Shown here piece after piece: positions 15,057-15,398 of a DNA stretch of 64,000 nucleotides. Position 1 is the first letter of the stretch, and each line of letters begins with the position of its first letter. Both the position numbers and the translations under genes were made by a program. Location: assembly GCF_024700885.2 (NCBI RefSeq), contig NZ_CP117016.1, one strand, 5' to 3'. The notes beneath the pieces are model-generated. The model saw only the letters and a list, made by a program, of their open reading frames with translations. It had not been told where the DNA came from and ran no database searches. The stretch is from Escherichia coli. GTDB lineage: Bacteria > Pseudomonadota > Gammaproteobacteria > Enterobacterales > Enterobacteriaceae.

Positions 15057-15060
15057 AACA

Positions 15061-15094
15061 TAAAAAAATCCCGCAGTGATCGCGGAGCTGCGGG
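15061..15094 (-). terminator. Intrinsic terminator oriented for the minus strand, just after gene I
   Basis: On the minus strand: cccgcag-loop-ctgcggg followed by attttttta. Confidence 0.45.
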
Positions 15095-15266
15095 GACAGA
15101 CAAATGAAGATCAATGTTAAGGAGTTGTTTTTGTTACTCGGGCAAAAAAACACTAACGCAGCGAAATTATAAGCGCCACAGTCAGTGTGTGAAAATGTGA
15201 AGATATTCAGAATTTTTATGCCATTACCGGTTTTAACCAACAGGATTATCGGTGGGCATGAAAGAA

Positions 15267-15301
15267 AACCCCGGTATCTGCTGATACCGGGGTTTCTCTT
15301 T
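15267..15301. terminator. Strong perfect hairpin (12-bp stem) in the I-J spacer; possibly bidirectional terminator
   Basis: aaccccggtatc-tgct-gataccggggtt with T-rich flanks on both strands. Confidence 0.45.
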
Positions 15302-15398
15302 AGCATGGCAGAAATGTGTTTCATGCTTTTCGGGCGAAGGATATCCGACTTCTGTACGGAATGGCAAGTGGCGGTTAATTTATTCAGGGGAAGGCTGT

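Follow-up and report, generated by a model that had tools for sequence, protein, structure and literature searches.

PasB and a hairpin-bearing J leader in the spacer between tail genes I and J of a lambdoid Escherichia coli prophage

The window analyzed here, a stretch of Escherichia coli DNA of 64 kb in all, contains a lambdoid prophage whose tail genes I and J are separated by a spacer of 342 bp, which starts right after the stop codon of I (15054-15056) and shows a G+C content of 43.6%, compared with 60% for gene I and 57% for gene J (Table 1). Gene I is named 'tail assembly protein' by RefSeq in identical loci. Two halves can be told apart in the spacer, a left one from 15057 to about 15219, which corresponds to the gene of a small RNA (sRNA), pasB, and a right one from 15220 to 15398, which forms the leader of J. 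On the 3′ side of J follow an ORF for a Lom-like outer-membrane protein (18940-19539, plus strand) and, after it, a side-tail-fibre-like ORF of 941 aa (19691-22516, plus strand) with a long, repetitive stretch rich in Ala and Ser. The best phage matches were the 'PPompW' prophages (integrated at ompW) of STEC strains, and Rfam hits to Trp_leader (35118-35211, minus strand) and STnc180 (49176-49378, plus strand) in the same window indicate that the prophage adjoins the trp region.

A preliminary description of this DNA had depicted the spacer as about 340 bp of AT-rich sequence without any convincing ORF, which agrees with the composition given above and with the failure of its ORFs (66/77 aa on the plus strand, 128 aa on the minus strand) to match any PHROG or Pfam family. 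A search with all 4,227 Rfam families over positions 14000-16500 gave nothing above the gathering threshold, and solely two chance snoRNA matches inside J at E <= 1; PasB itself has no match in the Rfam 15 library. One of the frames, the 66-aa ORF at 15218-15418 on the plus strand, is open throughout and annotated as a 'hypothetical protein' in a single phage record (ASU11), but a gene for a small protein is a very improbable reading of the spacer. Besides lacking a family match, this ORF has no Shine-Dalgarno sequence before its ATG, contains the 13-bp hairpin described below, overlaps the start of J out of frame, is left unannotated by RefSeq at over 1,400 loci of identical sequence, and is absent from the alternative right-hand module found in other strains (type B, see below). 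The view that lambda lacks an I-J spacer, also put forward in that description, had to be corrected: the lambda spacer measures 60 bp and has a G+C-rich hairpin of its own.

Table 1. Features of the I-J spacer and its flanking genes (positions in the window)
Feature	Position	Strand	Remarks
Gene I, tail assembly	14376..15056	+	Pfam Lambda_tail_I, E = 2e-16; upstream flank
PasB sRNA, PasB-2 allele, 83 nt	15062..15144	-	Mapped from the published E2348/69 coordinates
Rho-independent terminator of pasB	15062..15094	-	Stem CCCGCAG/CUGCGGG, 11-nt loop, U7 tail
Central, mostly unpaired part of the RNA (predicted)	15117..15135	-	ARN-type A-rich tract AACAAAAACAAC, then CUCCUUAA (anti-Shine-Dalgarno-like)
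Additional 5′ stretch predicted for the primary RNA, GCGUUAGUGUUUUUU	15145..15159	-	From the position of the -10 hexamer
Sigma-70 promoter of pasB (predicted)	15166..15193	-	11/12 consensus positions
Palindromic box AAATGTGA-AGATAT-TCAGAATT	15193..15214		CRP-like, 9/10 positions of TGTGA-N6-TCACA
J leader, 'type A' allele	15220..15398	+	One of two alternative right-hand spacer modules
Perfect 13-bp hairpin, 4-nt loop	15266..15295		U-rich tails on both strands; bidirectional, intrinsic terminator-like
Weak promoter-like site	15338..15367	-	TTGCCA, 18-bp spacer, TATCCT; 9/12
Gene J, tail tip / host specificity protein	15399..18872	+	Pfam J domains; downstream flank

The left half is organized as a minus-strand unit. 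Its promoter consists of a -35 element TTCACA (15193-15188), a 16-bp spacer and a -10 element TATAAT (15171-15166), located 70-100 bp upstream of a terminator at which it points. The arms of the terminator lie at 15070-15076 (CCCGCAG) and 15088-15094 (CTGCGGG), and a run of A7 at 15062-15068 becomes U7 in the minus-strand RNA; this intrinsic terminator, proposed earlier at 15061-15094, is also listed by a terminator scan. A G+C-rich stem of 7 bp followed by U7 and preceded by UUCAUUUGUCUGUC, as present here, is the arrangement of an Hfq-binding module. Of the minus-strand promoter-like sites in Table 1, only the weak 9/12 site falls in the interval 15300-15400, for which promoter prediction had been suggested. 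The two hairpins of the spacer do not bracket a single unit, as had been thought: the first one forms the 3′ end of the sRNA, whereas the second one lies upstream of the sRNA promoter.

PasB was described as one of five "pathogenicity-associated" sRNAs in the enteropathogenic strain O127:H6 E2348/69 by means of Hfq RIL-seq (Pearl Mizrahi et al. 2021, PMC8550237). Its 83 nt map there to the minus strand of NC_011601.1 (1466343..1466261; PMC8550237, Table S6), in prophage PP6 between E2348C_1436 and E2348C_1437 (PMC8550237), and in the E2348/69 record the RNA is flanked by genes for a "tail assembly protein" and "gpJ". An ungapped alignment of window positions 15030-15225 with the I-J spacer of E2348/69 fixes PasB at 15144..15062 on the minus strand, and the published Northern probe AATCCCGCAGTGATCGCGGAGCT finds an exact match of 23 nt at 15067-15089, unique in the window. 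The two RNAs are identical in 82 of 83 nt, and promoter and terminator do not differ at all. The sole substitution, at 15118, affects position 27 of PasB, which is a C in E2348/69; a change at this position defines the allele PasB-2 (Zhu, Shabalina and Storz 2026, bioRxiv 10.64898/2026.05.13.724894), so the copy in the window is assigned to PasB-2. A 381-bp query was matched at 99% identity or more by 864 records among the complete E. coli genomes; E. coli E2865 agrees with it at 100% over its whole length, and the pasB half is 100% identical in O157:H7 SS17 and 99.4% identical in 55989. By its sequence, its location between I and J, its orientation opposite to both genes and its lambdoid prophage setting, the left half is thus the gene of the published sRNA PasB in its commonest allele, a gene that is already known. 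The proposal of an antisense transcription unit or small RNA embedded in the late operon was therefore correct, as the exact probe match, the single-base difference to E2348/69 and the minus-strand promoter attest, even if pasB being already published means that this reading adds little on its own.

In E2348/69, a Northern blot confirmed PasB, and the RNA is Hfq-dependent, with log2 fold changes in the hfq deletion of -6.8 under activating and -2.4 under non-activating conditions (PMC8550237). Its baseMean under the activating condition was 482, compared with values of 4.8 and 15 for genes I and J (PMC8550237), a difference which indicates that PasB is an independent transcription unit in the lysogen; under non-activating conditions the value reached 1,082 (PMC8550237). 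RIL-seq gave 37 interactions of PasB with transcripts of the core and the accessory genome, but no target motif, which was obtained for PasA, PasD1 and PasD2 alone (PMC8550237). An Hfq-dependent transcript of about 83 nt is to be expected at the present locus by analogy with E2348/69, which carries C27 and another right-hand module, and with strain Sakai (see below).

These data also bear on a reading in which PasB would act mainly in cis, pairing with the I-J junction of the late mRNA and causing RNase III cleavage or an uncoupling of I and J, while the late mRNA would titrate PasB after induction; lambda OOP RNA acting against cII would be a parallel. The RNA is encoded within the late operon on the opposite strand, with its 3′ end 6 nt away from the stop codon of I, and is perfectly complementary to the junction; moreover, its location is fixed in all the relatives examined while its body drifts, which fits a position-dependent role. 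However, PasB overlaps neither a coding sequence nor a ribosome-binding site and begins more than 230 nt before the start of J, the late mRNA is nearly absent in the lysogen (see the value for I above), and the many trans partners in RIL-seq, together with the strong dependence on Hfq (PMC8550237), weigh against this reading. A mainly cis-acting PasB is for these reasons unlikely, although a role in cis would be compatible with one in trans.

The preferred reading, an sRNA acting in trans, can be outlined as follows. In the lysogen, the host RNA polymerase would start at the sigma-70 promoter, run leftwards and stop at the terminator (15094-15062). The product would be an RNA of 83-98 nt with a 5′ hairpin, an unpaired centre containing the ARN tract and CUCCUUAA, and a terminator hairpin with U7, a design typical of Hfq-binding sRNAs. 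Like the near-identical copy of E2348/69, PasB would need Hfq for its stability and would base-pair in trans with numerous mRNAs of the core and accessory genome. The gene itself would have entered the late operon in antisense orientation, immediately behind the stop codon of I. The identity with PasB is established here, and the expression, Hfq dependence and RNA partners of PasB by the published work, whereas the exact 5′ end, the seed, a control via the conserved box and the function of the second hairpin are inferred.

With respect to the 5′ end, the -10 hexamer predicts a start at about 15159 and a primary RNA of 98 nt, whereas the published end (15144, for 83 nt) is an estimate from read coverage (PMC8550237). 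The difference of 15 nt could reflect either 5′ processing of the RNA or an error in one of the two estimates. If both ends are right, processing would remove the U-run and free the ARN tract, which folding predicts to be paired with it. The GCGUUA at the predicted start and the U-run after it are kept across diverged members of the family described below, as are the -10 element and its spacing. Within the RNA, AACAAAAACAAC and CUCCUUAA are candidates for the Hfq distal-face site and the seed, respectively, and CUCCUUA and UUAAUCUUC stand out as conserved motifs in an otherwise variable body, predicted to be unpaired in most variants. The folding energy of full-length PasB is not unusual (z = -0.9).

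Relatives of the left half were detected in 1,812 of 5,426 complete E. coli genomes, at up to 11 places per genome and with identities down to 74%. The diverged ones, 74-81% identical, vary in the body of the RNA and conserve the promoter, the box and the terminator, and all nine diverged examples that were fetched map to I-J spacers (235-424 bp). A pattern scan of IMG/VR added about 100 further loci, for a combined set of 45 distinct transcript sequences. The family has in common a box AAATGTGA-N6-TCAGAA, which keeps a constant distance of 24 bp to the -10 element. The RNAs share a start with GC(G/A)UUA and then a U-run, an A-rich tract of the ARN type, CUCCUUA and UUAAUCUUC as motifs, and the terminator stem CCCGCAG/CUGCGGG with U7. 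In an nhmmer search with the family profile, the copy in the window scored E = 1.7e-43 and was the sole match in the window. Of 28 family variants, 24-27 retain the terminator stem, and two of its seven pairs show compensatory changes from G:C to A:U (pair 80/103 in one sequence, pair 83/100 in two). For each variant, folding predicts a hairpin of some kind at the 5′ end, a centre free of pairing and the terminator; RNAalifold on the 28 variants returned only the terminator as a consensus structure, the 5′ hairpins not being homologous pair by pair.

Some spacers harbour PasB-like units in tandem (508-931 of locus L006, NZ_CP012376.1, and loci L055, L078 and L094), where each unit has its own box and its own terminator, and the promoter and body of the second unit differ. 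A distant member in IMGVR_UViG_2711768049_000008 (locus L042, around 1285) combines a stem CCCACAG/CUGUGGG, compensatory with respect to CCCGCAG/CUGCGGG, with a poor -10 element (GGAAAAT). Beyond E. coli, most matches to the box pattern in species-representative genomes were due to chance, and genuine copies turned up only in E. albertii and in three suspect contigs, namely a metagenome-assembled genome labelled Collinsella sp. (L196), a 460-bp contig of Parendozoicomonas haliclonae (L200) and a 546-bp contig of Asaia platycodi (L182). The last three are most likely mis-binned or contaminant fragments of E. coli prophages. This distribution agrees with the report that Pas sRNAs are confined to Escherichia and Shigella (bioRxiv 10.64898/2026.05.13.724894).

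The comparison of the I-J junction among related prophages also addresses the simplest view of the spacer, that of a non-functional variable linker or a decayed insertion. It is true that I-J spacers of lambdoid phages range from 60 to 424 bp. Nevertheless, promoter, box and terminator are conserved in relatives of 74-100% identity; the homologous RNA of a near-identical locus is expressed, abundant and Hfq-bound by Northern blot and RIL-seq (PMC8550237); and hairpins of the quality found here exceed the chance expectation in the window about 70-fold. A mere linker is scarcely credible in view of these observations.

A second line of published data can be connected to the same family. In O157:H7 Sakai, the sRNAs EcOnc22, EcOnc23 and EcOnc24 were reported as mutual homologues encoded by prophages Sp15, Sp14 and Sp11 (Tree et al. 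2014, PMC4104026, Table S2), and a Northern blot of EcOnc22 showed a band of about 85 nt, destabilized without Hfq (PMC4104026). The 2014 coordinates are offset by about +128 to +146 bp with respect to NC_002695.2, as deduced from the Rfam hit of AgvB. In the current record, EcOnc22 maps between I and J of Sp15 and EcOnc24 between the same two genes of Sp11, both antisense to these genes, and after applying the offset their Hfq peaks fall on the body of the PasB-like RNA. An apparent placement of EcOnc22 on the type B hairpin was discarded as a shift between record versions, a point settled by the probe sequence, which lies on the RNA body: the EcOnc probe GGGAGAGAACGATGAAGATTAACTGATGAGTTA (33 nt) is antisense to it, with 23 contiguous nt matching in both Sp15 and Sp11. 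EcOnc22 and EcOnc24 share with the pasB of the window the I-J position, the antisense orientation, the box, the -10 spacing, the GC(A/G)UUA start, the terminator stem and U7, whereas EcOnc23 is grouped with PasB on the statement of homology by Tree et al. (PMC4104026). The bodies of EcOnc22-24 are about 75-80% identical to that of PasB, and a different seed is likely. EcOnc10 (Sp12) and EcOnc54 (Sp6), considered as further Sakai copies, were rejected; their loci are in lysis and regulatory regions, outside of I-J. In Sakai Sp10, STnc100 (428-620 of locus L014, plus strand) and AgvB (621-682, minus strand) lie back to back as a convergent pair.

From this correspondence in sequence, we propose that PasB and EcOnc22-24 may be regarded as one family of I-J-spacer sRNAs, which, given the matches to the PasB body, would have been detected independently in enterohaemorrhagic strains. 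The grouping may be new: the PasB paper gives no EHEC homologue for PasB (PMC8550237), EcOnc22-24 are absent from the recent preprint (10.64898/2026.05.13.724894), a 2021 review lists the targets of EcOnc22-24 as unknown (PMC7873438), and the literature searched contained no published connection between PasB and EcOnc22-24. Members of the family are present between I and J in roughly one in three complete E. coli genomes.

Upstream of the pasB promoter, the palindromic box has its half-sites at 15196-15200 (TGTGA) and 15207-15211 (TCAGA), and its centre lies about 44.5 bp upstream of the predicted start, not at the canonical class I or class II positions of CRP (-61.5 and -41.5). A search for TGTGA-N6-TCACA with at most one mismatch gave this single match in the 64-kb window, against about 1.9 expected by chance. 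Across diverged units the half-sites are invariant and the N6 variable, and the second units of tandem spacers keep the box. Prophages that come from different strains and occupy different att sites, namely PP6, Sp11, Sp15 and the one studied here, have the same box, which would make a host factor a likelier regulator than a phage repressor. In E2348/69, PasB is more abundant in overnight static LB than in virulence-inducing medium, where the CRP-repressed Spf RNA is high (PMC8550237). As a hypothesis, the higher level of PasB in LB fits activation by CRP, and equally well a control by the stationary phase. The box may accordingly be seen as a candidate operator, and CRP as the presumptive factor that binds it.

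The right half of the spacer behaves as a separate module. The leader of type A present in the window recurs in 1,441 E. coli records with 99% identity or more, and the phage collection contained no diverged relatives of it, whereas E2348/69, Sakai and others carry a shorter, unrelated module of type B, so that the spacer of E2348/69 measures 240 bp against 342 bp here. Its main feature is the second hairpin, for which a perfect 12-bp stem with T-rich flanks had been given at 15267-15301. The perfect stem and its flanks hold, but the stem extends over 13 bp at 15266-15295, with arms at 15266-15278 and 15283-15295 followed by (TTT)CTCTTT on the plus strand and (TTT)TCTTTC on the minus strand. 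Judged from sequence alone, it has the form of an intrinsic terminator in both directions, with UUUCUCUUU after the stem on the plus and UUUUCUUUC on the minus strand; a simple terminator scan did not list it. The region of the second hairpin folds with a z-score of -6.0. The 64-kb window contains seven separate hairpins whose arms pair perfectly over 11 bp or more, against about 0.1 expected from first-order Markov simulations, which preserve dinucleotide frequencies. The six others, with arms of 11-13 bp, lie at 23381-23410, 36974-37002, 38919-38949, 56665-56690, 57226-57255 and 60614-60640, and are probably terminators of other units.

Hairpins in the same position are present in other right-hand modules. 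In the type B module, a G+C-rich hairpin formed by CAGGCACC...GGTGCCTG precedes TTGTTTTT on the sense strand, and one change from C:G to T:A within it keeps the pairing. The lambda spacer (NC_001416, about 15466-15485) contains AAACCGCC-TGCG-GGCGGTTT and then TGTCATTT. The lambda hairpin resembles that of the window in its G+C-rich stem, its AAA/TTT flanks and its location on the sense strand a few tens of bases before J, and differs from it in sequence and in the length of the stem (8 bp, compared with 13 bp). To our knowledge, no function has been assigned to the hairpin of lambda. The presence of such a hairpin before J in both lambda and type B suggests that a sense-strand hairpin is the ancestral state, an old feature common to lambda and the prophage of the window, and these positional analogues indicate that the hairpin at 15266-15295 is not part of the sRNA. 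The pasB cassette looks, from its sequence context, like a moron inserted between the stop codon of I and the pre-J hairpin, in keeping with the suggestion of a cargo insertion in the preliminary description: compared with the 60-bp spacer of lambda, the cassette resembles an added promoter-gene-terminator module.

As to its role, the hairpin may be a terminator that antiterminated polymerase ignores, and might also shield the pasB promoter, a proposal to which we give slightly less than an even chance. During lytic growth, the Q-modified polymerase would read through the hairpin, whereas in the lysogen it would block stray sense transcription from entering J; in the type A allele, it would also stop antisense transcription coming from J before the pasB promoter. 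The hairpin could otherwise mark the 3′ end, at about 15257, of another RNA read from the minus strand, which would start at about 15331, measure some 75 nt and be transcribed from the promoter-like site at 15367-15338. The suitable distance of this 9/12 site, the UUUUCUUUC tail on the minus strand, the strong folding of the region and the conservation of the module in the 1,441 records mentioned above speak for such an RNA. Yet its -10 element (TATCCT) is poor, the hairpins of type B and lambda have a T-run on the plus strand only, and so the shared feature is an element of the sense strand, no evidence of expression was found, and the high identity may reflect mere recent spread. We therefore regard the second RNA as unlikely.

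Overall, a pasB sRNA gene followed by a J leader with a hairpin is very probably the best explanation of the spacer. A broader reading, tentative and with the balance leaning against it, sees the I-J gap as a dedicated slot for diversifying Hfq-dependent sRNAs (PasB, EcOnc22-24 and at least six further body types), transcribed from one conserved promoter with a CRP-like operator, directed at varying targets and switched by catabolite or stationary-phase signals, with the J leader perhaps providing a second RNA. If this were the case, catabolite or stationary-phase signals of the host would switch on a prophage-specific set of regulators. The link between PasB and EcOnc22-24, the CRP-like box and the tandem units may be new. 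The family, the box, the allelic J leaders and the lambda-like hairpin are modest additions to what is published; the regulator and the allelic diversity of PasB would guide experiments on its role.

Among known systems, AgvB and AsxR (Rfam RF02702/RF02703) are, like PasB, short Hfq-binding RNAs borne by prophages at a fixed 'moron' position, and they share with the PasB family the conserved 3′ parts, the variable targeting parts and the A-rich tracts of the ARN type. They differ from PasB in their location downstream of PR′ instead of in the tail operon and in their size (51-60 nt), and there is no sequence similarity between them. AgvB and AsxR are anti-sRNAs, and a sponge function of PasB would be purely an analogy. 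In particular, an AgvB-like sponge against GcvB, as suggested by the AACAAAAACAAC tract, was considered and rejected, given the location of AgvB and AsxR downstream of PR′ and the absence of any match to their Rfam models.

The OOP RNA of lambda, about 77 nt long and antisense within a phage operon, is transcribed from a promoter of its own up to a terminator of its own; it covers the 3′ end of the cII coding sequence and works in cis by way of RNase III. PasB is similarly short, equipped with its own promoter and terminator and antisense in a phage operon, but it covers neither a coding sequence nor a ribosome-binding site on the opposite strand, as a cis-antisense RNA of the OOP type would, and its documented partners are in trans, on Hfq. 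Finally, phage 'morons' are extra units, a notion cited in PMC4104026 from Juhala et al. 2000. As with morons, pasB comprises promoter, gene and terminator between two conserved late genes, has a lower G+C content and is expressed from the prophage, according to the data from E2348/69; unlike them, it carries a non-coding RNA as its cargo and runs in the direction opposite to the operon.
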